The notes beneath the pieces were generated by a model. That model made no database searches. It had not been told where the DNA came from and saw nothing but the letters and a program-made list of their open reading frames with translations. 64,000 nucleotides of DNA from a virus. A program made the translations under genes and the position numbers. Shown here one piece after another: positions 5,567-22,732 of this stretch. Numbering within the stretch: position 1 is the first letter of the stretch; each line of letters starts with the position of its first letter. The stretch lies in the IMG/VR virus record IMGVR_UViG_3300028844_003967, positions 5,221-69,220 of that record. One strand, given 5' to 3'.

Positions 5567-5598
5567 AATTCATCGAGCACCGAAGCACCCGACAAATT
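5567..5598 (-). repeat. Intergenic hairpin element (cUUCGg family)
   Basis: TCGAGCAC-CGAA-GCACCCGA on +; mismatches in this core stem are A/C on +, i.e. G:U on the minus-strand RNA. Confidence 0.75.
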
Positions 5599-5599
5599 G

Positions 5600-6190
5600 T
5601 TATTTTTTACGTTCTCTAATTACTTTTACATCATTATCAGTGTAACATAGCATACAGTTCATGCATGCTCCATGACAATTAGCATTGTCTTTAGTAGATA
5701 CAGCTGCAAAAGTTTTATCAAAATAATCTAATACCTTTTTATCAGTACACTCTCCATCAATTTTTGATACAGAAAAAATATACTTAATATTTGGTATTTT
5801 ATCGTATTTAAGAACAATGTCTGTTCTTTTAGTCCATAAACCAAAATTGGTATAAGGATTTTTCTTTGCTATTGCAATTAAGTTTTCCATATGTATATCA
5901 TTAATTAACTCTCCAAAAGAGTTAAAGCGTACATATCGATTATTAAATGTTGGCAATTCTCTGTCAGTTAAAAGCTGTTTAGATAGTAATTCAGAATTAT
6001 GTAATAGTTTAATCTCTAAGTTTTTTCTAAACTTAGAAAGTCGATTACTATAACAAACTCCACATACACTACCTTTTACTTTTGACATTAACTGACAAAA
6101 ATCATTGGTTAAGCTACTAACACTAATGGATGGAATGTTTTTCATTTTACCATTACCTGTAGTAACGTGTACTTGAGTCAGGCTATTCAT
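5600..6190 (-). CDS. GP88-like Fe-S/radical-SAM-related phage protein
   Basis: C...GSVCGVCY, VRFNSFGE and FGLWTKR motifs; C-terminal CxxxCxxCxxC. Confidence 0.65.
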   Translation of the reverse strand: MNSLTQVHVTTGNGKMKNIPSISVSSLTNDFCQLMSKVKGSVCGVCYSNRLSKFRKNLEIKLLHNSELLSKQLLTDRELPTFNNRYVRFNSFGELINDIHMENLIAIAKKNPYTNFGLWTKRTDIVLKYDKIPNIKYIFSVSKIDGECTDKKVLDYFDKTFAAVSTKDNANCHGACMNCMLCYTDNDVKVIRERKK

Positions 6191-6198
6191 TTTTAAAT

Positions 6199-6501
6199 TT
6201 AGTGATTGTTATTTCTAACATAATAAGGCACATCTCTCATGTGCAACATAACTAATTTAACGCTTGTAGATATTCTTTCTTCTTTAAAAACTTTAATATA
6301 TGGATCTTCTACCATTACAAGTCCATTCTTAAAAGCTTCATTATAACACAAATCTTCAGTAAGTTCTCCAAACTGAACAACACTTCCTGGTATAGATATG
6401 TTTACAGTAAGAGTTTCTCCTTGTTTCATCTTATCAGATTCAACATTATATGCTGCTCTAATAACTTTTCTGATTTCTTTTTCAATTTGATTTAATTCCA
6501 T
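6199..6501 (-). CDS. Hypothetical protein
   Basis: Track ORF 6199-6540; likely start ATG at 6501 (MELNQIEK) after an A-rich leader. Confidence 0.55.
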   Translation of the reverse strand: MELNQIEKEIRKVIRAAYNVESDKMKQGETLTVNISIPGSVVQFGELTEDLCYNEAFKNGLVMVEDPYIKVFKEERISTSVKLVMLHMRDVPYYVRNNNH

Positions 6502-6581
6502 GTTTTTTATAAAGATTAATAATTTTTTCTTCAAAGTCAATGAACAAAAAGTCCATTTCTAATTCGTACTTGTCGAATATA

Positions 6582-7046
6582 TCACGTAGTTTTTCTTTTA
6601 GGCTCATAATTATTCATATAACAATCTTCATTTGGGTCTGGAATATCTATTCCTTTATTAGCAAAATGCACTTGTAACTGAAATTTAAATGTATTAAATT
6701 CTTTAGTTGTCATAGCGCTTGTGCTTTTAGTTTCAGAATATGTAACTAATTTACCCATTACTTCTTTAGTTCTAAATTTTGCTTTTACAATTTCGTTTAA
6801 TATATAGTGATGAATATCCTCTTTTTCATAAGGCTCTCCTTCTATCTCTAATAGAACTTCTTGTACTGTTTTAATAGCTACACCCCAATACCAACGATTC
6901 TGTTTAGCAGAACGTCTTTTATTTGCTTTCTTAATAGTAATTTCAATTTCTTTGTCTTTGTATTGCGTAAGCATGCTTTTAACAAAATCATGATTATTAA
7001 TTACTATCTGTCCATTTTTGTCTACTGTTCCTATAAATGCGTTCAT
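6582..7046 (-). CDS. NinB/Orf-like recombination protein
   Basis: RRSAKQNRWYWG and STSAMTTKEF...GIDIPDP motifs of the NinB family. Confidence 0.7.
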   Translation of the reverse strand: MNAFIGTVDKNGQIVINNHDFVKSMLTQYKDKEIEITIKKANKRRSAKQNRWYWGVAIKTVQEVLLEIEGEPYEKEDIHHYILNEIVKAKFRTKEVMGKLVTYSETKSTSAMTTKEFNTFKFQLQVHFANKGIDIPDPNEDCYMNNYEPKRKTT

Positions 7047-7057
7047 AAATTATAATT

Positions 7058-7093
7058 AAAATACAAGGAGTACCGAAGTACTCCTTGTATTTT
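7058..7093 (-). repeat. Intergenic hairpin element (perfect 16-bp stem, UUCG loop)
   Basis: AAAATACAAGGAGTAC-CGAA-GTACTCCTTGTATTTT. Confidence 0.85.
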
Positions 7094-7095
7094 TA

Positions 7096-7728
7096 TTAGA
7101 ATGGTAAATCATCATCTTCATCACCTAATTGTTGAGATTTTTCAACTGGCTCCATTTCTCTTGCAGTTTGTGGCATAGGATTATTATCTCTTTCCCATAT
7201 TTTTAATTCGCCATCAAACTTAGCTTTATCATCAGGTCTAAGAGTTTTTCTAAAATAATCACTCTTACCAGTTAGTTCTTCGTTAACCGGGCCGGAATAT
7301 AAATATCTAATAGCCTCTTTAACTACAGGCTTATTATTGTTATTTTTATCATATCCGATATACTCTTCAGCTCGAAATAAAACTTTTATTTCTTTGCCTA
7401 TTACATCAACTAATGCTTTTGCACCTTTAGACTTCATATCTACTCCAGCATTTGTAAAGAACTCTTTAATTGCTTTTAATTTAAATCCTCTTGTATCTGC
7501 TGAATCAGCATCTCTTGTTCTAAAAAACTTTGATGTATTTAATTCTGCTGTAGATGTATCTCTAAATTCAACTTCCATATAAGGACAGCCCTTATAATCT
7601 TTATTGATATCTTCAGATAGTTCACATTTTTGTACTTCTGCTACAGTAACTCTTGGAGAGCTCATGTATTTACTTTTTTGTTCAATTTGGTGCTTTTCAG
7701 CTTCTGCAAATTCTTTGTCAAAACTCAT
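7096..7728 (-). CDS. Putative single-stranded DNA-binding protein
   Basis: Acidic C-terminal tail ending DEDDDLPF; lies directly downstream of the Sak4-like ATPase. Confidence 0.65.
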   Translation of the reverse strand: MSFDKEFAEAEKHQIEQKSKYMSSPRVTVAEVQKCELSEDINKDYKGCPYMEVEFRDTSTAELNTSKFFRTRDADSADTRGFKLKAIKEFFTNAGVDMKSKGAKALVDVIGKEIKVLFRAEEYIGYDKNNNNKPVVKEAIRYLYSGPVNEELTGKSDYFRKTLRPDDKAKFDGELKIWERDNNPMPQTAREMEPVEKSQQLGDEDDDLPF

Positions 7729-7759
7729 TTTTTACGTTTTAAAAATTAATAACTTAAAC

Positions 7760-8425
7760 CTACTTTTTAGTAGGCTCTTCTTCATTGTAATATTCTTCAA
7801 TAACTTTAATTACTTCAGCTATATCGTTTGGCATTTGCTTAGGTAGCATTTCCATTGGAGATTTAGCTGAAACATGCTCATAACCTTTCTGACGATTAGT
7901 TATAAATCTATATTCAGGATCTCCGTTTTCATTTGTTACCATATCTGAGAAAAGAACTATTACAAATTCTTTTTCTACTTTTTTCTTAAGACTACCATCT
8001 ACAGATATAAATCTTTCCTCTACACCTCCTGCTCCTTCAAGCACTTGGTCGATTCCCGTCATTATAACATATTTATTAGTATTCTTAGACTTATGTAATA
8101 TTCTCATAAGTTCTTTTTTGTATTCATCCCAAAAATCAAAACCTTTAAATGCTTTACCAATTTCTCTATAAGCGTGTTCTGTTAAAGAAGTAAAACTTTC
8201 AACAACAACTATATCTGCTTTATTACTTGAAATTGCTTTATCAAATGTTTTTTCAAAAGCATCTAAATCAGCTATAGGAACGTTTAATTTAAACTTTCCA
8301 GCGCCTTTAAATGGCAAAGCTTTTTGCTCTGTATTAATAATAATTGTTCTTTCAGGATTTAAATTTCTGAGTGAAGAACTCTTTCCGGTACCAGATGGCC
8401 CGACAATAAAAATGTTTGGTTTCAT
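7760..8425 (-). CDS. AAA_24/Sak4-like ATPase (recombinase)
   Basis: Walker A GPSGTGKS, Walker B-like IVVVES, C-terminal SAKSPMEM...PND. Confidence 0.75.
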   Translation of the reverse strand: MKPNIFIVGPSGTGKSSSLRNLNPERTIIINTEQKALPFKGAGKFKLNVPIADLDAFEKTFDKAISSNKADIVVVESFTSLTEHAYREIGKAFKGFDFWDEYKKELMRILHKSKNTNKYVIMTGIDQVLEGAGGVEERFISVDGSLKKKVEKEFVIVLFSDMVTNENGDPEYRFITNRQKGYEHVSAKSPMEMLPKQMPNDIAEVIKVIEEYYNEEEPTKK

Positions 8426-8430
8426 TTATT

Positions 8431-8640
8431 TTAGTTTTTAGAAATTAAAAATGATTCTTTGCGTACTACTCTATTACATTGCCCTCTATTTAAGGGTTTA
8501 ATAGTTCTTTCTGTTAAGTCGCATATTTCAGTAGAATTAATCACGTTTTTATATGTATCAACCCACTCTATGCCTTGACATAACTCAATAAGCTCTTGTT
8601 CTGACCTTATTTCTTTTTGTAAAATTAATAACCTTGTCAT
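8431..8640 (-). CDS. Hypothetical protein
   Basis: 69-aa ORF in the operon orientation. Confidence 0.45.
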   Translation of the reverse strand: MTRLLILQKEIRSEQELIELCQGIEWVDTYKNVINSTEICDLTERTIKPLNRGQCNRVVRKESFLISKN

Positions 8641-8689
8641 AGTTTATTTAATATAGTAAATGTAAGAAAAGTACATTAATTAACCTAAC

Positions 8690-8947
8690 TTATTTAGGTT
8701 TTCTTGGTGCTGAATCTTTTCTAATTCTTAAGTTTACACTCTTACCTTTTTCATTTACTATTTTTTTATATTTAGTAGTTAATTTTAATTTAAAATAACC
8801 TTTAATATTGATTTCTTCGTTTCTTAACATCAAAGAACGACAAGCAAGGAAGAACCGTCTAATGACTATATGAATTACTTTCGGATGGATTCCTGTATTC
8901 TCCGATATTTCTTTGACGATTTTGGTATTCTTCCAATTCTTTTTCAT
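8690..8947 (-). CDS. HU/IHF-like DNA-binding protein
   Basis: IVKEISENTGI...V..VI..F...L..NEEINIKGYFKL pattern of the HU fold; basic. Confidence 0.7.
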   Translation of the reverse strand: MKKNWKNTKIVKEISENTGIHPKVIHIVIRRFFLACRSLMLRNEEINIKGYFKLKLTTKYKKIVNEKGKSVNLRIRKDSAPRKPK

Positions 8948-10292
8948 TATAAGGATTATTACAAAATTTAGTTAACTCACTAATAAAGTATGTTTCTACA
9001 CTTCCCATTCCGGTATTTCTACCTTTAGCTATTATTATTTCAGCTTGTTCGATAGGTGGAATACCTTCTTCAATTTGAAAATAAGCTGGTCTATGTACAA
9101 ATATAACTGTATCAGCATCTTGTTCTATAGCGCCTGATTCTCTCAAATCTCCAAGAGTAGGTCTTTTATTAGCTCTACCATGAATTGCTCTGTTAATTTG
9201 AGATAAAGCCATTACTACTATTCCTAATTCAGATGCAATTTCTTTTAACATTCTTGACATTTTAGCAATTTCTTGCTCACGATTATTAGCGCCTGGTATG
9301 TCACATGTCATTAACTGAAGATAGTCTATAACTACAAATCTAACTTCATATCTAATAAAATATTTTCTAATTTTATTACATATTTTAGTAATGCTTCTTG
9401 ATTTATCATCAATCCACCATTTTTGTTTAGACAATCTTTCTTTAGTTGTATCTCTCATTTGATAATTTTTATAAGACATACACTTATTTCTTATGTTTTT
9501 CAATGGAATAAAAGCATCTGATGCAATAATTCTGTTAATTAAAGCAGTTTCACTCATTTCTAAAGAAAACATAGCTACACGAACACCACTTAGAATATTA
9601 TTTTTAAATATTTCTAATGCTAATGAAGTTTTACCCATTGATGGAGCTGCTGCAAGAATTACTAAATCATGTGGTTCAAAACCTGTAATATGTAAATCAA
9701 GTTCAGTTAAATGTGTTTTAATAAAATGTGTTGTATCTTGATTGTCTTGATAGTCTATAGCCTTATCTAAAGCTTTGTTTACATCAAACTCTTCAATTTC
9801 TCCCATTTCTTGAATTTCAATTATCTTTTCAGATATAGAACCAAGAATTAGCATAGGATCAACCATTTCATTACAACTTTCATTTACTTTGTCTGATAAC
9901 AGCATTAATGCTCTACGTCTGGCATATCCATTTAATAATTTAATATGTTCCAGCAAATGTTCGTCATTGTCAATACGTTCACATATATCATTGAGATAAA
10001 CAATTAGGTCAAAACCTATCTTTTTCTCCATCACATAATCAACATATTTTTTACTTGTTAAGTAATCAGTTACCAAAACTATATCAACTTTTGATTCATT
10101 TGATAACTCTCTTACCGCACTGTAGATATACTTACATTCTATTGTAGAAAATTCGTGAATACTTAGTTGGTCTGCAACCTGATAATAAGTATCTGGAAAA
10201 TTAATAAAAGTAGCAAGTACAATTTCTTCTAAATCAGTATTTGATTGACCGATAAAGTTACTTTCTGTAAAAAAATCTAATTGTTCACTCAT
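8859..10292 (-). CDS. dnaB: Replicative DNA helicase
   Basis: AAAPSMGKTS, FSLEMS, IDYLQLM, LSQINR, DLRESGAIEQDAD and IIAKGRN motifs; full N-terminal domain. Confidence 0.95.
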   Translation of the reverse strand: MSEQLDFFTESNFIGQSNTDLEEIVLATFINFPDTYYQVADQLSIHEFSTIECKYIYSAVRELSNESKVDIVLVTDYLTSKKYVDYVMEKKIGFDLIVYLNDICERIDNDEHLLEHIKLLNGYARRRALMLLSDKVNESCNEMVDPMLILGSISEKIIEIQEMGEIEEFDVNKALDKAIDYQDNQDTTHFIKTHLTELDLHITGFEPHDLVILAAAPSMGKTSLALEIFKNNILSGVRVAMFSLEMSETALINRIIASDAFIPLKNIRNKCMSYKNYQMRDTTKERLSKQKWWIDDKSRSITKICNKIRKYFIRYEVRFVVIDYLQLMTCDIPGANNREQEIAKMSRMLKEIASELGIVVMALSQINRAIHGRANKRPTLGDLRESGAIEQDADTVIFVHRPAYFQIEEGIPPIEQAEIIIAKGRNTGMGSVETYFISELTKFCNNPYNEKELEEYQNRQRNIGEYRNPSESNSYSH

Positions 10293-10312
10293 TTATATTT
10301 ATATATTAAAAA

Positions 10313-10336
10313 TCAAGGAGCAACGAAGCCCCTTGA
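10313..10336 (-). repeat. Intergenic hairpin element (degenerate)
   Basis: TCAAGGAGCAACGAAGCCCCTTGA between the thiF-like gene and dnaB. Confidence 0.6.
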
Positions 10337-10339
10337 AAG

Positions 10340-11104
10340 TTACAATCCTATTGGATTTGTTTTTCCTGTTTCTAAATTAATGTAATATCCTCTTTGAGTA
10401 ATTGAATAATCTTTAAGTAGTTTCCATAATAAATTCAATCCCATATAAGAAACAATAGGATTAATAAATAAGTCTTGCTTTTCAATAGCTTCTGCTACTG
10501 AACAGCTTGGCTCATTATCATCTTTAATACTCTTTAAATCAAATTCTTTATCAATAGTTGGTAATTTTTCAATAGTCTTGTATTTCTTTGATTTAGGCTG
10601 TTTGGTTCTATCAGAGCTTCCAAGTATTACTTGACCTGATTTATTACTATTGCCTAAGTCTAACCAATAATAAGGTTTTTCCCAATCTTGATATACTTTT
10701 GTCTTATTCCAATATTTTGAAATATTCATTCTTGCTTTAGCAGTATCAACACAACTTATAACAATGTTAGTGTGTTCAGCTGTTTCTTTATCGTATTTAT
10801 AGTTAGTGCTATGCCAAGAGGTTCCATAAAATCTATTGATTCTTGAAATAAGAACATCAGCTTTGTATCTACCTACATCAGATGCAGAAAATAGCTGTCT
10901 ACCAAAATTTGCTTCTGTTACTTTATCATCATCAAACATAATAGCTAATAAGCCGGGATGTCCTAATGCTTGTAAGGTAACATTCATTCTTGCCAATCCT
11001 TGAATTACTTGTGAACCATTACCTCCAGCTCCAATTACATTTACTGTAATTGGATGAGGTGGATTAACTATATAATCAGGAGCATAATGTATTTTAGACT
11101 TCAT
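10340..11104 (-). CDS. PRTRC ThiF-family (E1-like) ubiquitin-activating protein
   Basis: GAGGNGS Rossmann motif, DDDKVTEANFGRQ, SCVD, WLDLGN, catalytic-Cys region PSCSVAEAIEKQDLFIN. Confidence 0.9.
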   Translation of the reverse strand: MKSKIHYAPDYIVNPPHPITVNVIGAGGNGSQVIQGLARMNVTLQALGHPGLLAIMFDDDKVTEANFGRQLFSASDVGRYKADVLISRINRFYGTSWHSTNYKYDKETAEHTNIVISCVDTAKARMNISKYWNKTKVYQDWEKPYYWLDLGNSNKSGQVILGSSDRTKQPKSKKYKTIEKLPTIDKEFDLKSIKDDNEPSCSVAEAIEKQDLFINPIVSYMGLNLLWKLLKDYSITQRGYYINLETGKTNPIGL

Positions 11105-11793
11105 ATTCCTAAATTTTCTTTAATATTATTAACTATTAGACTTTCTAATAATTCATCTGTAGGAAACTTGTTTTTTCCATTTAATGATTCCCAAAGCTGA
11201 TGTAAATCAGTTTTTGATTTAGATAAAACATTTTTCATGTTATGGCTAAATTTACTTTCCCAAAATCCTAATTCGATTCCTTTAATGTAATCTTCATAGT
11301 ATTTTGCATCATTTGGCCATTTACCCGTTCCCCAACATACACTTCCATTATCACTAACATTAGAAAATGGAGCTATAAACAGCTTAGTTTTACTGTTTAG
11401 TTTATTGCTTTTCATTGCGTATATGGATAGCTTATTGTTTTCAGCAACCCAAAGCAAACGCGGAACAGGAGCAATTATATCTTTTAATTCAACAGATTTA
11501 GTAAAATACATCCTCATTATTTGAGGATTAGTTGTCCAAGCAACAAGAGTGTGACCAGGACTATTTCTTACAGTTATTATATTCTTAGGTATTCTTCCTT
11601 TAAATTGAAGTCTATCAGTAACATCAACAGACATAGTGTCCATTATATCAACAATAGTATTTTTCATTAAAGGATGAGTTGCCCCAAAAGACAAATCATC
11701 CTTAATAGAGCAAGATTCTAAGTAGTAATCACTACCACTCCTATGAACTATAATAGCTTGTACAGGTTTATAAAGTTTTTCTTTTAGTTCCAT
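11101..11793 (-). CDS. PRTRC protein B (prokaryotic E2 family D)
   Basis: PVPRLLW, LFIAPFSNVSDNGSVCWG (conserved Cys) and FWESKFSH; start moved to ATG 11793, just after the upstream stop. Confidence 0.85.
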   Translation of the reverse strand: MELKEKLYKPVQAIIVHRSGSDYYLESCSIKDDLSFGATHPLMKNTIVDIMDTMSVDVTDRLQFKGRIPKNIITVRNSPGHTLVAWTTNPQIMRMYFTKSVELKDIIAPVPRLLWVAENNKLSIYAMKSNKLNSKTKLFIAPFSNVSDNGSVCWGTGKWPNDAKYYEDYIKGIELGFWESKFSHNMKNVLSKSKTDLHQLWESLNGKNKFPTDELLESLIVNNIKENLGI

Positions 11794-11794
11794 A

Positions 11795-13006
11795 TTACAT
11801 TTTTTCCCAGTTCCAAATCTCTCTATAATAAATATCAGTTCCGAAATCAAACCATTGTTCAAGTTCTTTTCCGAACAACTCATATTTTTCATCAAAATTA
11901 TTTACATAATGATCAGCTGTCAATACAGAATAAGCACGAGTTTCAATTACTCCAACTTGTCCTGCATGGTCATTTAACCATTGCTCAATACCAAATTCCC
12001 AAAATGGACATCTAAAATCCCATTCAAACTTTAAAAAATCTAAAGCTGTTACTGGATGACCAGATTCATACTCATCTTCTGTAATGAAAATTAAATCATT
12101 GATTGTAACGTTATTATGATTATAATATAATTTCATTCCATTTTTAGCCCATTCTAATAATTCAATAAACATAGAGTTTCTTGGCTTATAAGTATTGATT
12201 TCATTCATTAGCCAATCTTCATCAATCATTTTATAGATATCGTTTATTTCTTTTATTAGTAAATATCCAATTCCATCTTTAATTGGAATTTTATATCTAC
12301 TATCAGGTCTCCAATGAATAAAATTCTTTAATTCATTAGCTGAACAAGATTCAAGAAAACCTTTTTTGTTCCAATTAAAATCAACTTTATCTTCGCAGTC
12401 TACTAAACTATCAAAAAACATTTCTTTAGCATCTTCGCTAAACCCTTCTTGAAAATCATTTAATAAAAATTTACCTTTAACTAATGAAATAACATTTCTT
12501 ATTATTACATATAATTTTGGGTTTTCATTTCTTAATTGAATTAGCCATTTTAAAGGCATAGAAACTTGATTACACAACATATCGTGAGCACAATATGATT
12601 GTATATGTAAATCTCCATTAATATCTTCAATAAGAGTTTCTGCATTATTAGGCATAAGCCTATCAATTTTACTTTGCATTAAAGAAACAATATCATTTAC
12701 ACTCATGTCTTTTGTAAACACTAAGTCATTATTGTACTTAGGGTGGTTTTTAATACATGCATATAAATTAGATACAAAATTATTGCGTACGTTGAAGCTA
12801 CCTTGCTTCAACTGTACGCATAATTCATTGTAAAATTCTTGTTTCTTTAAGGAATGTGGTCTATTTGATTTGATGACATTATTTGTCTTTCTTGATTCTC
12901 TAATGTTACTCCCCAATTTTCCTCTTGAGAAAATATTCTTCCCAAGTATTGGTGAAAGCTCTTTAGAGATTCGTTTTGTTTCAAATGTTTCAATTCCTGT
13001 TTGCAT
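11795..13006 (-). CDS. PRTRC protein F-like
   Basis: 403 aa, located between C and B in the usual PRTRC order; no motif recognised directly. Confidence 0.55.
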   Translation of the reverse strand: MQTGIETFETKRISKELSPILGKNIFSRGKLGSNIRESRKTNNVIKSNRPHSLKKQEFYNELCVQLKQGSFNVRNNFVSNLYACIKNHPKYNNDLVFTKDMSVNDIVSLMQSKIDRLMPNNAETLIEDINGDLHIQSYCAHDMLCNQVSMPLKWLIQLRNENPKLYVIIRNVISLVKGKFLLNDFQEGFSEDAKEMFFDSLVDCEDKVDFNWNKKGFLESCSANELKNFIHWRPDSRYKIPIKDGIGYLLIKEINDIYKMIDEDWLMNEINTYKPRNSMFIELLEWAKNGMKLYYNHNNVTINDLIFITEDEYESGHPVTALDFLKFEWDFRCPFWEFGIEQWLNDHAGQVGVIETRAYSVLTADHYVNNFDEKYELFGKELEQWFDFGTDIYYREIWNWEKM

Positions 13007-13038
13007 AATTTGTCTATAATTTTTAGATTTTCATCCAT
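12847..13038 (-). CDS. Small ORF overlapping the 5' end of the F-like gene
   Basis: ATG 2 nt after the Ubl stop codon; 63 aa, predicted helical. Confidence 0.45.
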   Translation of the reverse strand: MDENLKIIDKLCKQELKHLKQNESLKSFHQYLGRIFSQEENWGVTLENQERQIMSSNQIDHIP

Positions 13039-13040
13039 TA

Positions 13041-14023: not shown

Positions 14024-14051
14024 TTCAGTTAGCACCGAAGTACTAACTGAA
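14024..14051 (-). repeat. Intergenic hairpin element upstream of the PRTRC cassette
   Basis: TTCAGTTAGCAC-CGAA-GTACTAACTGAA; further hairpins at 14055-14076 and ~14102-14141. Confidence 0.8.
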
Positions 14052-15315: not shown

Positions 15316-15317
15316 AA

Positions 15318-15719: not shown

Positions 15720-15721
15720 AA

Positions 15722-15931
15722 TTATTTTTTTAATGCATGTTTTACTTCTCTTACCCATTCTTCATATCCAACTTGAAAAGCTATTGGGTCATACTTTCTT
15801 ATGGAAGTTCCCCATTTGTTCTGCCACATATGTGCCATACGAATAGTTCCTCCAATTATCCAACGCTCATCTCCTTGTTCTGGAGATAAGTCGTTTAGAT
15901 ATTCTTCATACTCTTTTTTTGTCAGCTTCAT
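15722..15931 (-). CDS. Hypothetical phage protein (..DPIAF.VG..EW motif)
   Basis: Track ORF; likely start MKLTKKEY at 15931. Confidence 0.6.
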   Translation of the reverse strand: MKLTKKEYEEYLNDLSPEQGDERWIIGGTIRMAHMWQNKWGTSIRKYDPIAFQVGYEEWVREVKHALKK

Positions 15932-16145
15932 GTATTTTGGTATTATCTTCAATTTTCTTAATTAGCTGATTCATTTCTTGTCTAACAAATTCTACAGTAA
16001 ACAATGCTCTTTTGCCATCTTTTTCTATATCTTCTAATATTTTAATTGAAGCATCTCGTTCAGCACGTAATGCTTCAATTATTATATAAGCTTCTCTTCC
16101 ATTAAACAATTTAATTTCTTTTAAACGATAGTCTGATGTTGCCAT
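15906..16145 (-). CDS. Hypothetical protein
   Basis: Likely start MATSDYRL at 16145, directly downstream of a hairpin element and AT-rich leader. Confidence 0.6.
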   Translation of the reverse strand: MATSDYRLKEIKLFNGREAYIIIEALRAERDASIKILEDIEKDGKRALFTVEFVRQEMNQLIKKIEDNTKIHEADKKRV

Positions 16146-16160
16146 AATTATATATATTTT

Positions 16161-16196
16161 AAAATTCAATCAGCACCGAAGCACTGATTGAGTTTT
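16161..16196 (-). repeat. Intergenic hairpin element
   Basis: AAAATTCAATCAGCAC-CGAA-GCACTGATTGAGTTTT; two A/C mismatches equal G:U on the minus strand. Confidence 0.85.
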
Positions 16197-16754
16197 TTAC
16201 TTTTCTAAACATTTTAATTGATTACTTATTACATTAGGTTTATCACAATCGTAACTCTCATAACCTTTGCTCCAGTAAATCCTAACCTTTTCTATGTCCG
16301 ATGATTTAAGAGAGCTTATGTCTGACTCTTCTAAAACACAATAGCTTGAGTAAGTTGTTGTTCCCCTATCGTAATCGGAGTCTCCAAAATCTGACTTGCC
16401 AATTATAAGTTCAATCATTGATCCATCTACTAATTTCATAATAATTTTACTACCTTTAGACACTACTCCATAATATTCATAGGCTTTTTTAGTTTGAAAT
16501 TTAGCATTAAAATATAATGCATAAGTTTCATTTAGCTTGGCTGTGTAAACTCCAATTTCCAGATACTGCTCTTTCTTGCGTTTGTAGTATTTTAATAGTG
16601 CAGAATCTGTGTGAGAAATAAATGGTTCGGTTTCCATTATTATTCTTGTGTCTCCTGTAAATTCATCTACTTCATTCTTGTAGTAATTACATTCTTGTGC
16701 GTTACATATTAATACTCCCATTAATAAGGTTATTGTTAAAATTGTTCTTTTCAT
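16197..16754 (-). CDS. Secreted/periplasmic protein with Sec signal peptide
   Basis: MKRTILTITLLMGVLICNA-Q Bacteroidota-type signal peptide (Gln at +1); NEVDEFTG motif. Confidence 0.65.
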   Translation of the reverse strand: MKRTILTITLLMGVLICNAQECNYYKNEVDEFTGDTRIIMETEPFISHTDSALLKYYKRKKEQYLEIGVYTAKLNETYALYFNAKFQTKKAYEYYGVVSKGSKIIMKLVDGSMIELIIGKSDFGDSDYDRGTTTYSSYCVLEESDISSLKSSDIEKVRIYWSKGYESYDCDKPNVISNQLKCLEK

Positions 16755-16768
16755 TATTTTTATTTTTA

Positions 16769-17185
16769 TTAAATTTTTTTCACTAAGTGATAAATTTTTC
16801 TTAACTCAACTTTTTCTGCTTCAGTTAAATTTTTTCCAAGTCTTTCTATTAGAGATAAAACTTCATTTATTTTTGTTTTCTTACTTTTAGTTTTATTTTT
16901 CTTTAACTTAAATGGTAGGTTATCTGTTAAATCCCATTCTATCACATTTCTATTGGTTACAGTACATTTACGTACTCTCACTTCATAAATGACTCCTAAA
17001 TCACGTAATTCGGTAAACCTTGAAGAAACTCCAAAGACTCCAAATTTTGCTCCTGATTTTGTTATTGCTTCTGATGAAGTACAAGGAGCTGATTTTAATA
17101 ATGTTTCTAAAACTTCTAATCTTCTTTTAGATAATAACCCTTCTGCTTTTATTTGTTTATAACATTCTATACTTGTTTGTCTCAT
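16769..17185 (-). CDS. Winged-helix DNA-binding protein
   Basis: PCTSSEA...VSSRFTELRDLGVI.EV..RKC.VT.R.V..W pattern. Confidence 0.6.
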   Translation of the reverse strand: MRQTSIECYKQIKAEGLLSKRRLEVLETLLKSAPCTSSEAITKSGAKFGVFGVSSRFTELRDLGVIYEVRVRKCTVTNRNVIEWDLTDNLPFKLKKNKTKSKKTKINEVLSLIERLGKNLTEAEKVELRKIYHLVKKI

Positions 17186-17197
17186 AATTATTATGTA

Positions 17198-17644
17198 TTA
17201 AATTAATCCTTCATCAGCAAAGCTATAAAAGCTTTCTTCTGTTATTATTAAATGATCAAGTACTGTAATATCAAGTAACTTTCCGCAATCTACCATTTTA
17301 TTAGTAAGATTGATATCGGCTTGACTTGGTTTTAAATTACCTGATGGATGATTGTGTACAAGTATTACGCTTCTTGCATTACACAATAAACCATGCTGAA
17401 ATACAGTTTTAGGGTCTGCAATAGTTCCTGTTAGACCTCCTAATCCAACTATTGTAAAACCAATAGTATTGTTAGCTGTATTTAGATATACACACATAAA
17501 AGCTTCTCTATAGTCAATTTGTACCGGAAATACTTTCCTTACAAATTCACTTAAAGCTTGAGAAGAATTTATTTTCATCCTATGTACATCATCTTTCTTA
17601 GTATATACTGCTTCCAGTTCTTTAGCAAATGATTTAAGATTCAT
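17198..17644 (-). CDS. radC: RadC-like JAB/MPN domain protein
   Basis: REAF..YLN.AN, HNHPSGNLKPSQAD and LDHLII...YSFADEG motifs; JAB domain only. Confidence 0.9.
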   Translation of the reverse strand: MNLKSFAKELEAVYTKKDDVHRMKINSSQALSEFVRKVFPVQIDYREAFMCVYLNTANNTIGFTIVGLGGLTGTIADPKTVFQHGLLCNARSVILVHNHPSGNLKPSQADINLTNKMVDCGKLLDITVLDHLIITEESFYSFADEGLI

Positions 17645-17658
17645 AATTATATATTTTA

Positions 17659-17693
17659 AAATTCAATGAGTACCGAAGCACTCATTAAAATTT
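17659..17693 (-). repeat. Intergenic hairpin element
   Basis: AATGAGTAC-CGAA-GCACTCATT; downstream leader almost identical to that at 16143-16170. Confidence 0.85.
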
Positions 17694-17694
17694 A

Positions 17695-17955
17695 TTAATA
17701 CCCTACAAAATAATTCATCCATTCATCTTCATCTGCGTTATCTTGCATGTCATTAAACTCTTTAGCCATATCTCCATTAAGAACTACCTCTTGTGGTTTA
17801 TTCTCTTCCGAGTATTTCTCATACGCATACAATAATGATTCTAATATCTTATGAGGCCCATTGTTCCTCATAAGCATTAAAACTGTATTTTCAGCGTGAG
17901 ATGAGGTCATATCTTTAACCTCAATCTCTTTACCTTCTCTTGTTTTCCATTTCAT
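17695..17955 (-). CDS. Hypothetical phage protein (W.T..G..I...DM...H..N motif)
   Basis: 86-aa ORF coupled to the upstream gene. Confidence 0.6.
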   Translation of the reverse strand: MKWKTREGKEIEVKDMTSSHAENTVLMLMRNNGPHKILESLLYAYEKYSEENKPQEVVLNGDMAKEFNDMQDNADEDEWMNYFVGY

Positions 17956-18347
17956 TAGTCCTGGTATCTGTTAATGCTTTCTCCAAAGACAGTTGCTCCG
18001 TCAATGTACATGCCTTTCCAAAAGAATACTATTCTGTTTTTTTGTATAATTGGTTTAACCCACAAAGCAGGACTATCAAACAAAACACCATTCTCTATCA
18101 AAGAAACAGAAGGTATTCTAATCTTTGAAATTTTAGTCTTGCTTATAACTTTAGTCTTGCCAAAATTATTCTTAACAGTCTTTTTAATAGTCTTGTTTTC
18201 AATTATACAGCCTTTTTTAGTGGCTTTTATAATTAAATTGTCAAATAGTACTTTAGCAATCTCCCAATCGCTTAAATCACATTCTTTTCTAAGTCTTTCT
18301 GAGCTTTTAAACCCTTTTTCTTCTAATAATTGTCCTAATCGTGCCAT
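17955..18347 (-). CDS. Hypothetical basic protein
   Basis: 130-aa ORF in the block orientation, TAATG coupling to the next gene. Confidence 0.55.
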   Translation of the reverse strand: MARLGQLLEEKGFKSSERLRKECDLSDWEIAKVLFDNLIIKATKKGCIIENKTIKKTVKNNFGKTKVISKTKISKIRIPSVSLIENGVLFDSPALWVKPIIQKNRIVFFWKGMYIDGATVFGESINRYQD

Positions 18348-18417
18348 AATCTTCTGTGTTTTATTAGTTGTTTGTATATATATTAATTTGCAGAATATCT
18401 ATATAATATCTACTGCA

Positions 18418-18444
18418 TAAAAAAAGAGGCTATTAAACCTCTTT
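18418..18444 (-). terminator. Intrinsic terminator
   Basis: AAAAAAAGAGG-CTATTAAA-CCTCTTT; T run follows the stem on the minus strand. Confidence 0.6.
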
Positions 18445-18597
18445 ATTATTGTTGTCTTTTACAAGCTCATTCATCCATCTTACTAACAGGACATCTTGTA
18501 AATGTTTATCGTTAAAGTTTCTCCAAAAACTTAACATATCTTCTTTAGTTATTTTTGGAGTCTTTCTAACAGATTTACTCTTTCCAGCATTATCCAT
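18433..18597 (-). CDS. Small hypothetical protein (54 aa); absent from the ORF track
   Basis: Hand translation MDNAGKSKSVRKTPKITKEDMLSFWRNFNDKHLQDVLLVRWMNELVKDNNNKEV; overlaps the upstream stop. Confidence 0.5.
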   Translation of the reverse strand: MDNAGKSKSVRKTPKITKEDMLSFWRNFNDKHLQDVLLVRWMNELVKDNNNKEV

Positions 18598-18919
18598 GCT
18601 TTTTAGATTTTTTCCAATGTTGATTTACATTAAACAAAGTGAATTTATCAAAGATAAGATCAGATTCTTTCCAATTTTTAAAAACATATATCCCTATCTC
18701 ATCCGGATATAGATACATCTTTTCTAAATATTCAGTTTGATGTTTATAGTTTTCTGATTTTTTCTTATTATCTAAATGGACAGTATAGTGATAAAGCTTT
18801 CTGTTCCACTCTCTGCATAAAGTAGATATATATAGATATTTTATACCAAACATAATAACATACGTTAGAGGTATAACAATAGATAATATACATAGTAAGT
18901 GAATAGTTTCTTCGTTCAT
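18590..18919 (-). CDS. Membrane-anchored hypothetical protein
   Basis: N-terminal TM segment (LLCILSIVIPLTYVIMFGI). Confidence 0.55.
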   Translation of the reverse strand: MNEETIHLLCILSIVIPLTYVIMFGIKYLYISTLCREWNRKLYHYTVHLDNKKKSENYKHQTEYLEKMYLYPDEIGIYVFKNWKESDLIFDKFTLFNVNQHWKKSKKHG

Positions 18920-19055
18920 AGTTTTTGTTTTAACAGGTTAAAATTTATTTCGAGTCTTTCTAAGACAAAAACATTACCGCTGGACATACATTAGTCTGTC
19001 GGTAATTAAGTATTGTTCGTATTTAATTGGGTAATTATTGCATCTGTTTAGTAAA

Positions 19056-19086
19056 AAAAAAGAGTACACGTTAGTGTACTCTTTTT
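19056..19086. terminator. Hairpin/terminator, variant of the GTAC element
   Basis: AAAAAGAGTACAC-GTTA-GTGTACTCTTTTT. Confidence 0.7.
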
Positions 19087-19093
19087 GTATTTA

Positions 19094-19729
19094 CTAAAGG
19101 TTTGCTTTAGTTATGTTACTGATTTGGTCAAAGTTTCTATCTCCCGAAGTAATTTTCAATCGGTAAGTAGTATCTTTCAACTCGTTGATAATTTTGCATA
19201 ATGCTTCACAATATGCTTTAGGCTCATTTACTCGAACTGCGTAGCATTTGTTATTATCATTACTATTATCAAAGATAAACTCTAATTCATCTCCATGCAT
19301 TTCTCTTAAAGCAGGTAATTCTTTTGCAAGGTCTGTGATTTCGATAGGTTGAGTTACCTTGATTACAGATTCTTGGTCTGTACCCTCGTTTTGTACAACA
19401 TCTACCTCTTGAGTATATGCTACAAATGGATTAGGTAAAGAACTAAGCAAATCTGTTTTATCAGCATGAATAAACAAATATCTGTATTTGTTGATAGCTT
19501 TTGCTAATTCATTTGCTCGAGAAGTTCTGATAAAATCGTTTATACCGTCATCTCCTTTAGCTAATGCTCCAAAGTTTACTTTAACTGAATAAGTTTCTAC
19601 TCCGTCTTTAGTTTTGGTATGAACGCTTGCATCTTCAAGTTTAGCAAATCCTGATTTCATTGTTCTTAATGCCGAGCTTTTTGCATTAGTTGATAATTGA
19701 GCTCCTCCGAATTGTTCTAAAAAATTCAT
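19094..19729 (-). CDS. Hypothetical protein (211 aa)
   Basis: Likely start MNFLEQFGG at 19729; the track's longer TTG start runs into a hairpin. Confidence 0.65.
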   Translation of the reverse strand: MNFLEQFGGAQLSTNAKSSALRTMKSGFAKLEDASVHTKTKDGVETYSVKVNFGALAKGDDGINDFIRTSRANELAKAINKYRYLFIHADKTDLLSSLPNPFVAYTQEVDVVQNEGTDQESVIKVTQPIEITDLAKELPALREMHGDELEFIFDNSNDNNKCYAVRVNEPKAYCEALCKIINELKDTTYRLKITSGDRNFDQISNITKANL

Positions 19730-19822
19730 ATTAATGTTAGTGGTAAGCCACGACCTTTTAGTTAATAAATAATCAAGCAACAAAGAAGAACAAAAACTCT
19801 TTGCTACTTGAAAAGTGTAGGT

Positions 19823-19987
19823 TTACGATACTCTCAATACTTTGAGAGAACGTGCTATTCTGTTAGGATTGTAGCTAACAAGAACAGATGTCATGATTTT
19901 AGCATCTTTTCTTGTAGATGCTAATAGTTTAGAACTTTTTAACCTTGGTCTTTTAGTTCGTGTCGGTGATAGTGTATCTCTTTGCAT
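19823..19987 (-). CDS. Small basic protein (54 aa); absent from the ORF track
   Basis: MQRDTLSPTRTKRPRLKSSKLLASTRKDAKIMTSVLVSYNPNRIARSLKVLRVS, lying between two hairpins. Confidence 0.5.
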   Translation of the reverse strand: MQRDTLSPTRTKRPRLKSSKLLASTRKDAKIMTSVLVSYNPNRIARSLKVLRVS

Positions 19988-20059
19988 ATTATTTGGTGAT
20001 GTTTATAGTAAAACATCAACCAACAAAGAAGTACTTTGTTGATTGTTATGTTTAAGTTT

Positions 20060-20317
20060 TTATTTCATCTTTCCGTATCTGTTTTCAATAATTAATTCAA
20101 GAAGTATATTTTGTAGTTCTTCAGATAAATGCTGAAACAAATCAGGATTGTACTTAAACGAACAAAATTGATGTAATTGCCAAGCGTCAAGTGTACGCAT
20201 AGTACTACTACTTACTTTACAGTTTCCGGATTTGTAGCACCACAATTCTATTGTTCTTTCTTTTGAGGTTTTTACCTCAAATGTGTAGCCTAATAAGGTT
20301 ATTTCTAATTCTAACAT
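20060..20317 (-). CDS. Hypothetical early protein
   Basis: 85-aa ORF between two hairpin elements. Confidence 0.6.
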   Translation of the reverse strand: MLELEITLLGYTFEVKTSKERTIELWCYKSGNCKVSSSTMRTLDAWQLHQFCSFKYNPDLFQHLSEELQNILLELIIENRYGKMK

Positions 20318-20376
20318 AGTTCAAGTTGTTACTCATAGTAGAATAACAAAGAATACCGAAGTACTCTTTGTTATTT

Positions 20377-20685
20377 TTAAAGGTTTTTAAATCCTCCTGC
20401 AAGACATTTGAAGTTGTTCCAAGTAGTTCTATACTTTTGATGTTTAGTCTGAAGTATAATAAACTGTGATGTTACATTAACTACACGATATATTCCATTA
20501 CGGGAATTAACGTGTATTTTATCTCCAATGTAACAAGGTTTAATAGCTTTTACGAGCTTAAATCTTCTTCTCTTAGGGTTAGCATCATAAACCTCAAGTT
20601 CGTAATACCATTTACTTGGTACGTCTAACACAACATCAGAAGGAAGAAACGGAGACCAACCATAGTCATCAATTTTATTTTTCAT
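20377..20685 (-). CDS. Hypothetical early protein (possible SH3/KOW-like C-terminus)
   Basis: Likely start MKNKIDD at 20685; IGDKIHV....GIYRVVNV. Confidence 0.55.
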   Translation of the reverse strand: MKNKIDDYGWSPFLPSDVVLDVPSKWYYELEVYDANPKRRRFKLVKAIKPCYIGDKIHVNSRNGIYRVVNVTSQFIILQTKHQKYRTTWNNFKCLAGGFKNL

Positions 20686-20739
20686 ATTGCTAAGTTTTAA
20701 AATTACAAAGAACAAGGAAGTACCTTGTTCTTTGGTTAA

Positions 20740-21021
20740 TTACATTTGACTTGTATTATAAGGCTTGTCAATCATGTAGTAATCTGTACATAAATCTTCT
20801 AAAGATTCGTAATGACCATTTAAAGCTATCGCAAGTATATCACTTTTGGTAGTGTAATAGTCAATCCATGGAGAATAGAAGTACTTTATGTTGTATAAGT
20901 AGTTTTCGTATTTCTCGTATGTTTGTGATTCCATTTCATTATAACTCCATAATGAGTTTAATTTTTTCTGATACCAATTATAAGCATCAGAAATTTTTTT
21001 GTAATTAATAGGTGTGTTCAT
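20740..21021 (-). CDS. Tyr-rich hypothetical early protein
   Basis: 93-aa ORF between two hairpin elements. Confidence 0.6.
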   Translation of the reverse strand: MNTPINYKKISDAYNWYQKKLNSLWSYNEMESQTYEKYENYLYNIKYFYSPWIDYYTTKSDILAIALNGHYESLEDLCTDYYMIDKPYNTSQM

Positions 21022-21073
21022 AGCTTATAGTTTTAGTTAAACATTCAATGAGTACAGAAGTACTCATTGAATG

Positions 21074-21199
21074 TTATCCCCAATTAAATTTAACAAATGG
21101 TTTGTTGGGTTTAATTGGTTTCCAACATACTCTTAGTTTATACACGTCTAACGTGTATTTCCAAGTGTTTCCGTCTTTATGTAATCTAAATATTTTCAT
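21074..21199 (-). CDS. Small protein (41 aa); absent from the ORF track
   Basis: MKIFRLHKDGNTWKYTLDVYKLRVCWKPIKPNKPFVKFNWG; stop codon forms the base of the next hairpin. Confidence 0.55.
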   Translation of the reverse strand: MKIFRLHKDGNTWKYTLDVYKLRVCWKPIKPNKPFVKFNWG

Positions 21200-21252
21200 A
21201 TGATTTAGTTTTAGTGAATAATACAAAGAGTACGGAAGTACTCTATGTATTA

Positions 21253-21438
21253 TTAATGATTGTGAGAATGAAACATTAATAGTTTTATTCTCATCTCAAG
21301 CATATCAGCTTTTTTCTTTGCACCAGCATAAGGTATAGATTCAGGTTTAAGCTCGTTTAATCTTGCTTTGTAACCATTATACTTACGCACAAGATTTCCT
21401 ATGCGTGAATGCAGTTTATTCATCTTTTCAGTAGTCAT
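21253..21438 (-). CDS. Small helical protein (61 aa)
   Basis: Likely start MTTEKMNK at 21438; the track's extension crosses a hairpin element. Confidence 0.6.
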   Translation of the reverse strand: MTTEKMNKLHSRIGNLVRKYNGYKARLNELKPESIPYAGAKKKADMLEMRIKLLMFHSHNH

Positions 21439-21497
21439 ATCTAAGTTGGTTATAATTGTGAATAACCAACAAGCACCGAAGTACTTGTTGATTATTT

Positions 21498-21638
21498 TTA
21501 GAAAGGACATACAGCTGTGCATGGTGCTGACTTAGAATAAGATTTACTTGTTGAGCATGATGACATGACTATACATACAAGTAATAAATAAGCTATTACT
21601 GTGAAGTAACAAGCATTCATAAGTTTTTCTCTTTTCAT
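21498..21638 (-). CDS. Very small putative lipoprotein (46 aa); absent from the ORF track
   Basis: MKREKLMNACYFTVIAYLLLVCIVMSS-CSTSKSYSKSAPCTAVCPF; basic N-terminus, hydrophobic core, lipobox MSSC. Confidence 0.6.
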   Translation of the reverse strand: MKREKLMNACYFTVIAYLLLVCIVMSSCSTSKSYSKSAPCTAVCPF

Positions 21639-21673
21639 AACTATAGTTTTAAAAATTCAATAAGCAATGAAGC

Positions 21674-21805
21674 TTATTGAATAGGGTAACCTGCGTCATA
21701 CAGGTATTGTTCTGTTCGCACATCAGCTTGGTGTACTTTGTAAAGAACAATTAGAATTAGCATTAATGTGATAGATAACACGATAATTTTTAGTTTTTTT
21801 TTCAT
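21674..21805 (-). CDS. Small membrane protein (43 aa); absent from the ORF track
   Basis: MKKKLKIIVLSITLMLILIVLYKVHQADVRTEQYLYDAGYPIQ. Confidence 0.55.
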   Translation of the reverse strand: MKKKLKIIVLSITLMLILIVLYKVHQADVRTEQYLYDAGYPIQ

Positions 21806-21921
21806 ATCAGTTTAATTAATTCACGATTAACAGCGTCTGAAATTTTTTGTTTAGAGCTGTAGTTTTCATTGATTTCTGCATTAATTAATATGCGAGAAAC
21901 GATTTGTTTAAATTTTTTCAT
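21802..21921 (-). CDS. Small protein (39 aa); absent from the ORF track
   Basis: MKKFKQIVSRILINAEINENYSSKQKISDAVNRELIKLI; ATGA overlap with the next ORF. Confidence 0.55.
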   Translation of the reverse strand: MKKFKQIVSRILINAEINENYSSKQKISDAVNRELIKLI

Positions 21922-22732
21922 AATGATTTTAATATTAGTTTAAATAACAAAGAAGTACTACGAAGCATACTTAAAAAAAATTCAATCAGTACGTGAGTAC
22001 TGATTGAATAGTTGACTTGCTAAGTCTAAGTTTGGGAATTACACTCCAAAGCAATAAGGAGACACCACAACGGTTGGTATCATAAGTGAACAACTGTTCA
22101 CGCAAGCTTATTAAGATTATTACTGAATTGTAATAATCAATCAATACCGAAGTATTGATTGATGTTGCTTATTTACTTGATGTAGTAGGTTACAAGCGTG
22201 TACCTAATTATTATAAACCAATCATAGTGGAATTAGAATAATAATCAAAGAATAAAGAAGTACAATACAAAGAATACGTCACATTGTCATTGACAAATCG
22301 TCATGCTCTAACCATTGCTATTGTCATTTATTTCTTATAACTTCGTACACTCATATGTATCACGTATGAACAACAACATAACCAAACAGTTTCTAATCGT
22401 AGTAGAAATGTAGAGGATTGACACTCTCCACTCGCTTGGCTCTCACTACAGTATAACTACGCAGTAGGTAGTAAACTCAATCAAAATGCAATGAAGAACT
22501 TGTGATGAATTGTATTTGGATTTGGTTTTCAAATCGTTTTCGATTTGGTACCCCGTATGTTTCCATTTTGCTTTCAGAAGTTGCTAACTTTAAGATAGTC
22601 TTCTCACCCTTGGCATCCACTACTACTTTACGACCAGTATGTGTTTGGGATCAGGGCCGGGGGTTGTTTTAGGAATTGATGTATTCAGTTAATTCAATAG
22701 GGGTATGTTATATAATGATAAAAAAATATTAG

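Follow-up and report, generated by a model that had tools for sequence, protein, structure and literature searches.

Strand-specific intercistronic RNA hairpins private to one lineage of distant crAss-like phages and their possible role as leaky terminators

What do some seventeen related hairpins do between the genes of the early and replication block of a phage? The question was raised by a 64,000-nt window (bases 5221-69220 of the 69,220-bp IMG/VR virus record IMGVR_UViG_3300028844_003967; G+C content about 30%), in which an initial annotation had pointed out a dispersed family of about 17 related intergenic palindromes. The source, of 69 kb, is by its protein matches a distant crAss-like phage, since for the open reading frame (ORF) 37194-41513 Pfam gave the Crassvirus muzzle protein (PF25731, E 7e-105), PHROGs matches were obtained for the terminase, portal and major head protein, and the terminase matches named crAss-like phages, although at only 25-28% identity; the hosts of the matching records are Bacteroides and Flavobacterium. 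No DNA-level match was found among GenBank phages by megablast with an 18 kb query. The minus-strand genes run from about 24055 down to 1145, with small ORFs followed by DnaB, Sak4, NinB, exonuclease and others, and the plus-strand structural genes start at 24125. The hairpins are a real, strand-specific and lineage-private family of intercistronic RNA hairpins in the minus-strand block. The reading we favor, with a probability of roughly 55%, is one of leaky intrinsic terminators (attenuators) that serve as hairpins at mRNA 3' ends as well.

All 17 elements, named here by their first coordinate (h5567 to h22136), folded as stem-loops on the minus strand, which is the coding strand of the block. 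The RNA folding free energies were −12.4 to −22.0 kcal/mol in 16 of them, while h19773 was weak (−6.2 kcal/mol, with a 9-nt loop). The stems of the 17 copies contained 204 Watson-Crick pairs, 17 G:U pairs spread over nine hairpins, no A:C pair and 2 others, and the folded strand is therefore the transcript strand, in agreement with the initial annotation, which had read most mismatches as G:U on the coding minus strand. The plus-strand versions of the wobble-bearing copies folded much worse, both as RNA and as DNA. The motif GTRCTTCGGYAC (GTRC-TTCG-GYAC) was found nine times with at most one mismatch, in 9/9 cases on the minus strand, compared to a mean of 0.13 in shuffled sequences, and none of 100 shuffles reached nine. 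Two other early claims had to be corrected. The apex described as conserved is present in only 9-11 of the 17 copies, the remaining loops being TAAC, TCAC, TACTT (twice), TTCGTT, TTCATT and one 9-nt loop. And the outer stems, said to differ freely, fall into two subfamilies, TTCAATNAGTRC..GYRCTNATTGAA and ACAARGAGTAC..GTACTCYTTGT (members are marked as type A or type B in the list below), with a C-G and an A-U pair nearly invariant at positions 10 and 9 from the loop.

A covariance model was then trained on the 11 copies with 4-nt loops. Among the six untrained copies, h21655 was matched with an E-value of 0.0011, h19056 with 0.015, h20706 with 0.15, h10313 with 0.26 and h20010 with 0.72, and h19773 with only 8.6; two intragenic hairpins, at 12258 and 16038, scored about equal to the weaker of these copies. 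All matches with E<0.1 lay within 5561-22171 and always scored better on the minus strand. There was no match with E<2 in the structural block (24000-64000), as the initial reading had also held, and none in the 5.2 kb of the genome beyond the window. In the 11-copy alignment 95.5% of the cells were paired and 8 of 14 pairs had changed on both sides, a level that was reached by 0/500 shuffles, and slid controls paired at 32-43%. With 24 copies from relatives added (35 sequences), 93.1% of the cells were paired and 10 of 14 pairs had changed on both sides; the inner 11 pairs of these sequences contained 51 G:U, no A:C and 2 others, and the loop on the coding strand was UUCG in 29/35 aligned copies. 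No Rfam family matched the window at or above its gathering threshold. The 22-nt motif AGTRCTTCGGTRCTNNTTGNAT was found in only eight viral contigs (four known relatives and four short uncharacterised contigs), and its 6 single matches in 185,579 representative genomes are at chance level, by which a host-type repeat was rejected. Literature searches surfaced no description of such hairpins in crAss-like phages. The proposal of a phage-specific cis-element system is thus upheld by the absence from Rfam, the chance level in the representative genomes and the presence in close relatives.

Contigs of relatives (L numbers below) were found via DnaB and terminase; their identities are 84-95% and 54% in DnaB, and 90-99% and 71-77% in the terminase. 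A related-locus search using ORF 19094-19783 yielded zero relatives. The hairpin family occurred in every close relative, always on the coding strand, where the model scored higher at every match site; in a 40-kb record (G001) it was matched only at 29.5-39.5 kb. Compensated changes were observed at orthologous sites, namely AUGAGU/ACUCAU vs AUAAGU/ACUUAU at h17659 and AAUAAGC/GCUUAUU vs AUAGAGC/GCUCUAU at h21655. In distant relatives (54-73% identity) the GUAC apex was mostly replaced, for example by GAGC-UUCG-GUUC, GUUC-UUAG-GAAC or GAGC-UUAAUU-GCUC, and the outer stem TTCAAG..CTTGAAUUU (TTCAAG..CTTGAA) was kept better than the apex. The 41-kb early block of phi14:2, a phage of the crAss-like group, contained no family member, the best model match having an E-value of 0.052, and only about five unrelated intergenic hairpins. 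The family is therefore private to this lineage, and the idea of a family general to crAss-like phages was rejected.

A dispersed family with subfamilies and orphan half-sites, with copy turnover among relatives and with ORF-less hairpin chains in L018 and L037, could also be composed of selfish palindromic repeats, similar to miniature inverted-repeat transposable elements (MITE) or repetitive extragenic palindromes (REP), that spread in intergenic DNA and have no function for the phage. However, all copies have a single orientation relative to transcription, the orthologous sites carry compensatory changes, the placement from stop to start codon is precise, and the family persists down to 54% DnaB identity. 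We regard a purely selfish origin as highly improbable.

The placement of the hairpins was evaluated at the 48 gene junctions of the minus strand. Fifteen of these junctions hold 16 hairpins, and h21461 makes the seventeenth. Of the 15 hairpins with an upstream ORF, 12 have a stem that begins −9 to +7 nt from the stop codon, and among all 17 there are 12 with a gap of 11-29 nt between stem end and following ATG, much as had been noticed at the outset; the whole hairpin-bearing spacer is 46-59 nt. The other junctions of the block overlap or are at most 35 nt apart, save three longer gaps. The members are listed below with their covariance-model scores in bits or E-values, followed by two related sites.

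h5567, 5567..5598, minus strand: loop UUCG, 14 pairs including 5 G:U, 47.3 bits; 1 nt past the stop of ORF 6190-5600 and 13 nt from the ATG of a J-domain-like ORF.
h7058, 7058..7093, minus strand: type B, ACAAGGAGUAC-UUCG-GUACUCCUUGU, 16 pairs, 61 bits; between ORF 7728-7096 and a NinB-like ORF.
h10313, 10313..10336, minus strand: 6-nt loop UUCGUU, E 0.26; upstream of DnaB; the site has the 4-nt-loop form GUGC-UUCG-GUGC in L009, L010 and L011.
h14024, 14024..14051, minus strand: type A-like, loop UUCG, U-rich tail UUUUAUUUAU, 54.4 bits.
h16161, 16161..16196, minus strand: type A, 57.8 bits; in L018 and L010 one or two genes directly 5' are missing and the 5' arm is different.
h17659, 17659..17692, minus strand: type A, 56.5 bits; L018 has the compensated variant AUAAGU/ACUUAU and different upstream genes.
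h19056, 19056..19086, minus strand: GAGUACAC-UAAC-GUGUACUC followed by nine U, E 0.015; 137 nt to the next ATG; the most terminator-like member.
h19773, 19773..19805, minus strand: weak, −6.2 kcal/mol, 9-nt loop, E 8.6; an unrelated UUCG hairpin takes the site in L010 and L018.
h20010, 20010..20049, minus strand: GUACUUC in and beside a 5-nt loop; crossover partner of h20342 in L010.
h20342, 20342..20375, minus strand: type B, 51.7 bits; 3' half in the L018 chimera, 5' flank in the L010 chimera.
h20706, 20706..20734, minus strand: 12 pairs, 5-nt loop UACUU, E 0.15.
h21040, 21040..21075, minus strand: type A, loop UUCU, 16 perfect pairs, 56.2 bits.
h21217, 21217..21254, minus strand: type B, loop UUCC, 49.1 bits; 5' half in the L018 chimera.
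h21461, 21461..21496, minus strand: loop UUCG, 2 G:U, 54.5 bits; 1 nt past the stop of ORF 21638-21498 and 22 nt from an ATG.
h21655, 21655..21682, minus strand: 6-nt loop UUCAUU, E 0.0011; doubly compensated variant in L037; 3' flank fused to an h21980-type hairpin in L035.
h21980, 21980..22009, minus strand: type A, loop UCAC, eight U past the stem, 47.1 bits; in an ORF-poor leader.
h22136, 22136..22163, minus strand: AUCAAUCAAUAC-UUCG-GUAUUGAUUGAU, 48.8 bits; no upstream ORF; first member in the direction of transcription, with two similar copies in L018.
Orphan arm, 21940..21969, minus strand: 3'-arm-like sequence AGUACUUCUUUGUUAUU with no arm to pair with, 35 nt before the ATG at 21921.
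Leader box, 22236..22345, minus strand: upstream of the first hairpin, ends in a second orphan arm GUACUUCUUUAUUCUUUGAUUAUUAU; kept in five relatives.

The anatomy of the elements resembles that of terminators. In 4500-24400, 29 terminator-like sites were counted, compared to 5.4 ± 2.7 in shuffles, and nine of these are family members (7058, 10313, 14024, 19056, 20010, 20706, 21217 and 21980 on the minus strand, and 22136 on the plus strand), the rule behind this count being stricter than the tail score given next. Across the initial 20 kb of the late block (24401-44300), 8 such sites were counted vs 7.4 ± 2.6 in shuffles. The U-tail score was −2.86 or lower in 17/17 hairpins against a background median of −2.1, and 11 of 17 tails were within the top 5%. 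With 11-29 nt between stem and ATG a promoter does not fit, and a search of the flanks gave no k-mer module common to them: TAAAAC occurs in 4/19 flanks, and TAAAA is also present in 13/22 late-gene leaders. Bacteroidota-type TTTG..TAnnTTTG pairs showed no pattern behind the hairpins, and sigma-70-like sites were not enriched (103 vs 115 expected). The excess of terminator-like sites, the U-rich tails and the lack of promoter space or module are the reasons for which we favor leaky termination. A terminator or mRNA-stabilising hairpin was among the roles first suggested, and the RNA-strand wobbles, the stop codon at the foot of the stem and the U-rich tails fit it.

According to this model, the elements are RNA stem-loops within polycistronic messages of the early and replication genes on the minus strand, and each occupies the short gap between two genes without translational coupling. 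Its stem stands at or just past the stop codon, mostly with a C(UUCG)G cap, followed by a U-rich tail and then, 11-29 nt on, by the ATG. Leaky termination together with protection of the 3' end would set the dose and stability of the message of each gene, and the members with long U runs and long gaps (19056, 21980 and 14024) may be near-complete terminators. The case of phi14:2 suggests, by analogy, that an injected polymerase would produce these transcripts. The copies would recombine as a by-product, by which hairpin-plus-gene cassettes could be lost, gained and swapped and the family kept uniform within the lineage.

Several observations weigh against this model. Six of the 17 tails are only moderately U-rich (top 6-17.5% of the background), and the usual sequence past the stem, AAUUUUAAAA, is weaker than in textbook terminators. 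Efficient termination would leave the genes 11-29 nt downstream without a promoter, so the model needs leakiness. Strong-tailed members might have been expected before long, promoter-bearing gaps, but tail strength was uncorrelated with the distance to the next ATG (rho −0.21, p 0.43) and this idea was dropped. Thermodynamics alone does not account for the conservation of the GUAC apex, of the C-G and A-U pairs that hardly vary, or of the outer stem TTCAAG/CTTGAA in relatives of 54-73% identity. Finally, early transcription of the crAss type does not in general require such elements, as the family is absent from the early block of phi14:2.

The same placement could be explained at the level of translation, the hairpins being spacers that insulate A/U-rich starts without a Shine-Dalgarno sequence, or hand ribosomes on, with no role in transcription. 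They stand exactly at the non-overlapping, uncoupled junctions, the ATG distance is short and fairly regular, and no Shine-Dalgarno-like sequence is visible in the spacers. Moreover, the foot of the stem touches the stop codon, so that every terminating ribosome must melt the stem. On the other hand, h22136 and h21980 have no upstream ORF, h19056 is 137 nt from the next ATG, U-rich tails would be unnecessary for a translational role, and the late genes of the same phage start without such hairpins. A purely translational function is therefore unlikely in our judgment.

Other terminator-like hairpins were seen outside the family. They are GC-richer and unique, and are located at 1116-1142, 18423-18444, 22905-22925, 32473-32508, 34757-34795 and 62404-62444. 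The one at 1116-1142 is bidirectional and lies at a convergent junction, and the only strong terminator-like hairpins of the late block belong to this set. A short conserved word, AATTACCGAYAG, was found downstream of h19056 in the 137-nt gap (window 19000-19033, L010:1165-1200, L011:594-630), and may be an internal promoter or operator. An 18-pair hairpin at 21080-21118 on the plus strand, with a loop of 3 nt, adjoins h21040 within a small minus-strand ORF, and its wobble pairs fit the plus strand only.

The comparison with relatives also revealed what happens to the hairpins over time. The copies share 9-13 nt or more of identical sequence and the Sak4, exonuclease and NinB genes are located in the same block; recombination among the copies follows from this identity and from the annealing and exonuclease genes that the phage itself carries. 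Three chimeric hairpins were checked base by base, in L018 (h21217 with h20342), L010 (h20342 with h20010) and L035 (h21980 with h21655), and cassettes of 300-870 bp are missing at the joints. The L018 chimera has its upstream flank and 5' arm from h21217, whereas its 3' arm and its downstream flank come from h20342; it changes over within GAGTACTTC, which both share, and lacks about 870 bp with two small ORFs and two hairpins. In L010 the 5' flank of h20342 is joined to h20010 within the common ATAACAA, and in L035 an h21980-type hairpin is joined to the 3' flank of h21655 within ATTGAATTTTT. Mosaic boundaries were also located at other hairpins. Three relatives have an extra ORF directly 5' of h10313, L035 carries unrelated cassettes between h21217 and h20706, and a divergent allele of ORF 19729-19094 travels with both flanking hairpins. 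The apex at the h10313 site differs among close relatives, which looks like conversion from another copy.

The hairpins are thus used as crossover sites, and this part of the initial proposal of recombination points stood. They are not preferred boundaries of insertions and deletions, which also occur at junctions without hairpins: in our own tally, read from gene maps of the window vs L018, L010 and L011, the junctions broken in at least one of the three were 6/12 with a hairpin and 11/19 without. We regard the recombination as a by-product of short dispersed repeats in a phage that encodes Sak4, exonuclease and NinB.

Which polymerase reads the elements is the next question. In phi14:2 the whole replicative module is reported as an early class transcribed by a rifampicin-resistant virion RNA polymerase (vRNAP), and the authors saw no common motif upstream of the early transcripts made by this enzyme. 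The hairpins are confined to the equivalent block of our phage. The 2973-residue ORF 46250-55171 on the plus strand is probably a giant vRNAP similar to gp66 of phi14:2. It contains the motif DHDGDKTFV (SDADHDGDK), which is kept in the consensus of 23 homologues, and 71 homologues, mostly of 2700-4800 aa, were found in the representative library. This motif aligns with the catalytic DFDIDKMYV of gp66 only after a two-residue shift, our own adjustment, of a non-significant BLAST high-scoring segment pair (E 6.9). The homologue profile matched gp66 residues 1601-1746, the trigger-loop region, with an hhalign probability of 84.6% and an E-value of 6.9e-6. Pfam, PHROGs and PDB phmmer searches with the ORF came out blank, plain BLAST was non-significant, and the Atlas gave a lead to the RNA-dependent RNA polymerase family PF05183 (score 0.82). 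Since the equivalent block of phi14:2 is read by the vRNAP and a gp66-like gene is present, it is plausible, by analogy only, that the early block and its hairpins are read by a vRNAP, as one of the roles first suggested assumes. The string DFDAD in the 798-aa ORF 42234-44630 on the plus strand, in the tail and ejection gene region, was also considered as a polymerase motif and rejected, as the product is an NlpC/P60-domain protein (E 1.9e-5) and the string is probably there by chance.

A vRNAP might read more from the hairpins than stem and tail. They could be sequence-specific signals, either termination or pause sites of the crAss-type vRNAP or binding or cleavage sites of a phage RNA-binding protein, with the apex and stem bases being recognised. 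The sequence conservation exceeds the need for pairing, copies occur only in the strand block read by the vRNAP in phi14:2, the terminators of the late block are few, GC-rich and unrelated, and the gp66-like protein with its conserved DHDGDK motif and hhalign match is encoded. Polymerase-specific signals also have precedent, as seven experimentally mapped terminators with a common 26-nt motif are reported for the vRNAP of the Thermus phage P23-45 (PMC10770324). However, the apex is not kept in the relatives of 54-73% identity (GAGC-UUNNUU-GCUC and others), the apex type varies even at a single orthologous site, nothing comparable is present in phi14:2, and recombination from hairpin to hairpin explains the uniformity within the lineage equally well. 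Recognition of the sequence itself is possible in our view, though doubtful. Slightly more doubtful is the broader idea that the hairpins are the cis code of the crAss-type vRNAP, that is, lineage-private, sequence-recognised stop, pause or restart signals, which could take the form of RNA hairpins that halt the enzyme or of coding-strand DNA hairpins that expose single-stranded template. If it were true, an injected polymerase with no known promoter or terminator would express its early genes cassette by cassette, and because the signals are repeated, every early gene would be a swappable cassette.

The DNA variant can also be taken in a promoter sense, whereby extruded coding-strand hairpins would expose the template as promoters or loading sites for the virion polymerase, each starting the next gene. 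The gp66 of phi14:2 is reported to transcribe single-stranded or denatured DNA and hardly any double-stranded DNA, and no early promoter motif is known for it. The elements also lie 11-29 nt upstream of ATG codons, and the strand asymmetry holds with DNA parameters too. But the N4-type promoters use a template-strand hairpin, whereas the template versions here carry A:C mismatches and fold poorly (−1.4 kcal/mol, vs −3.9 kcal/mol for the coding strand, in h5567 folded as DNA), and the DNA stabilities are low overall. In addition, the first genes of the block (24055-22931) have no preceding element, the stems abut stop codons and carry U tails like 3' elements, and phi14:2 has no family. A promoter role is distinctly unlikely, and the N4-style hairpin promoter listed in the initial annotation is disfavored for the same template-strand reason. 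Overall, the early interpretation is partly supported.

Upstream of the hairpin chain, the leader box includes AAGTTATAAGAAATAAATGACAAT followed by TTGTCAATGACAATGTGACG, with the orphan hairpin arm at the end. In L018:3230-3400 and L035:1530-1700 its middle has grown to about six direct repeats of TGTCACAG-like words and appears iteron-like. The box could be an early promoter, an operator or an origin. It lies in about 1 kb of the minus strand, 21921-22931, which has no ORF of at least 35 aa and holds h22136, h21980 and other small hairpins. In L018 and L037, chains of 5-7 hairpins with no ORFs between them are present in the ORF-poor leader. The ORF-less stretch recalls the abundant early non-coding RNAs that are reported from phi14:2.

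Some other properties of the genome were recorded. A 42-aa, highly basic Lys/Arg-rich ORF without a Pfam match is located at 22770-22898 on the plus strand, within the minus-strand block. At 11101-13977 on the minus strand, a PRTRC system protein E (PF19556, E 2e-31) and a prokaryotic E2 family D protein (PF14460, E 3e-30) border a 403-aa ORF of no known family, and represent a ubiquitin-like-conjugation or PRTRC-type set within the replication block. CTAG is nearly missing from the whole genome (5 observed vs 186 expected) and GATC is depleted (46 vs 180), which may reflect restriction avoidance. GTAC, the tetranucleotide of the apex, was considered as a protected or avoided site and rejected, its count being ordinary (180 observed vs 215 expected).

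For the study of how early transcription starts and stops in crAss-like phages, this lineage offers a compact, repeated and strand-specific RNA element restricted to the block presumed to be transcribed by the vRNAP. Its natural variants, i.e., compensated stems, apex swaps and chimeras, provide concrete templates on which the polymerases of host and phage can be assayed for termination and read-through.

Among the known systems, the N4 hairpin promoters P1-P3 are three in number and lie at the end of the genome, on the template strand and upstream of transcription units, with stems of 5-7 bp and loops of 3 nt. In both systems repeats that form hairpins occupy the early region, and the phage injects an RNA polymerase of its own, which for the present phage is presumed, but the 17 copies here have 9-16 bp stems and 4-6-nt loops, stand directly past stop codons, and carry wobble pairs that fit only the non-template (RNA) strand. 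REP and MITE families differ in that the copies here have one orientation and compensatory changes. C(UUCG)G hairpins were reportedly described by Tuerk et al. in 1988 in T4 intercistronic regions, and there as here the extra-stable tetraloop caps intercistronic hairpins of an AT-rich lytic phage; the stems of the present family, however, are related in sequence (two subfamilies), occupy one transcription block and mark recombination joints. With Rho-independent terminators and attenuators the family has in common the stem-loop on the RNA strand, the A-rich 5' flank and the position past the stop; the 3' tails here are U-rich to a varying degree and mostly short or interrupted, the ATG is 11-29 nt away, most elements are internal to the array, and the sequence is conserved among copies. 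In P23-45, termination sites of the early region likewise share a motif and a two-barrel virion polymerase reads the early genes; its sites were mapped by experiment, while the present elements are predicted from sequence.

The nearest counterpart is the PeSL (promoter-early stem-loop) cassette known from T4-like phages, which is about 100 bp long and contains a strong sigma-70-like promoter and a Shine-Dalgarno sequence (PMC2839356, Arbiol et al., 2010; PMC4122927, Comeau et al., 2014). The spacer here is 46-59 nt and shares nothing promoter-like, the hairpin family also runs through conserved replication genes, and insertions and deletions are not preferential at the elements (6/12 vs 11/19). 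In both systems, repeated intergenic terminator-like stem-loops are located among small non-essential early ORFs, and recombination between copies leads to a single chimeric element with loss or gain of ORFs. One published PeSL crossover lies within the loop (PMC2839356 / PMC4122927), and one crossover here lies in the apex. Cassette shuffling of the PeSL kind can thus also take place in a group of phages not related to T4, where a bare terminator-like hairpin that lacks a promoter is enough.

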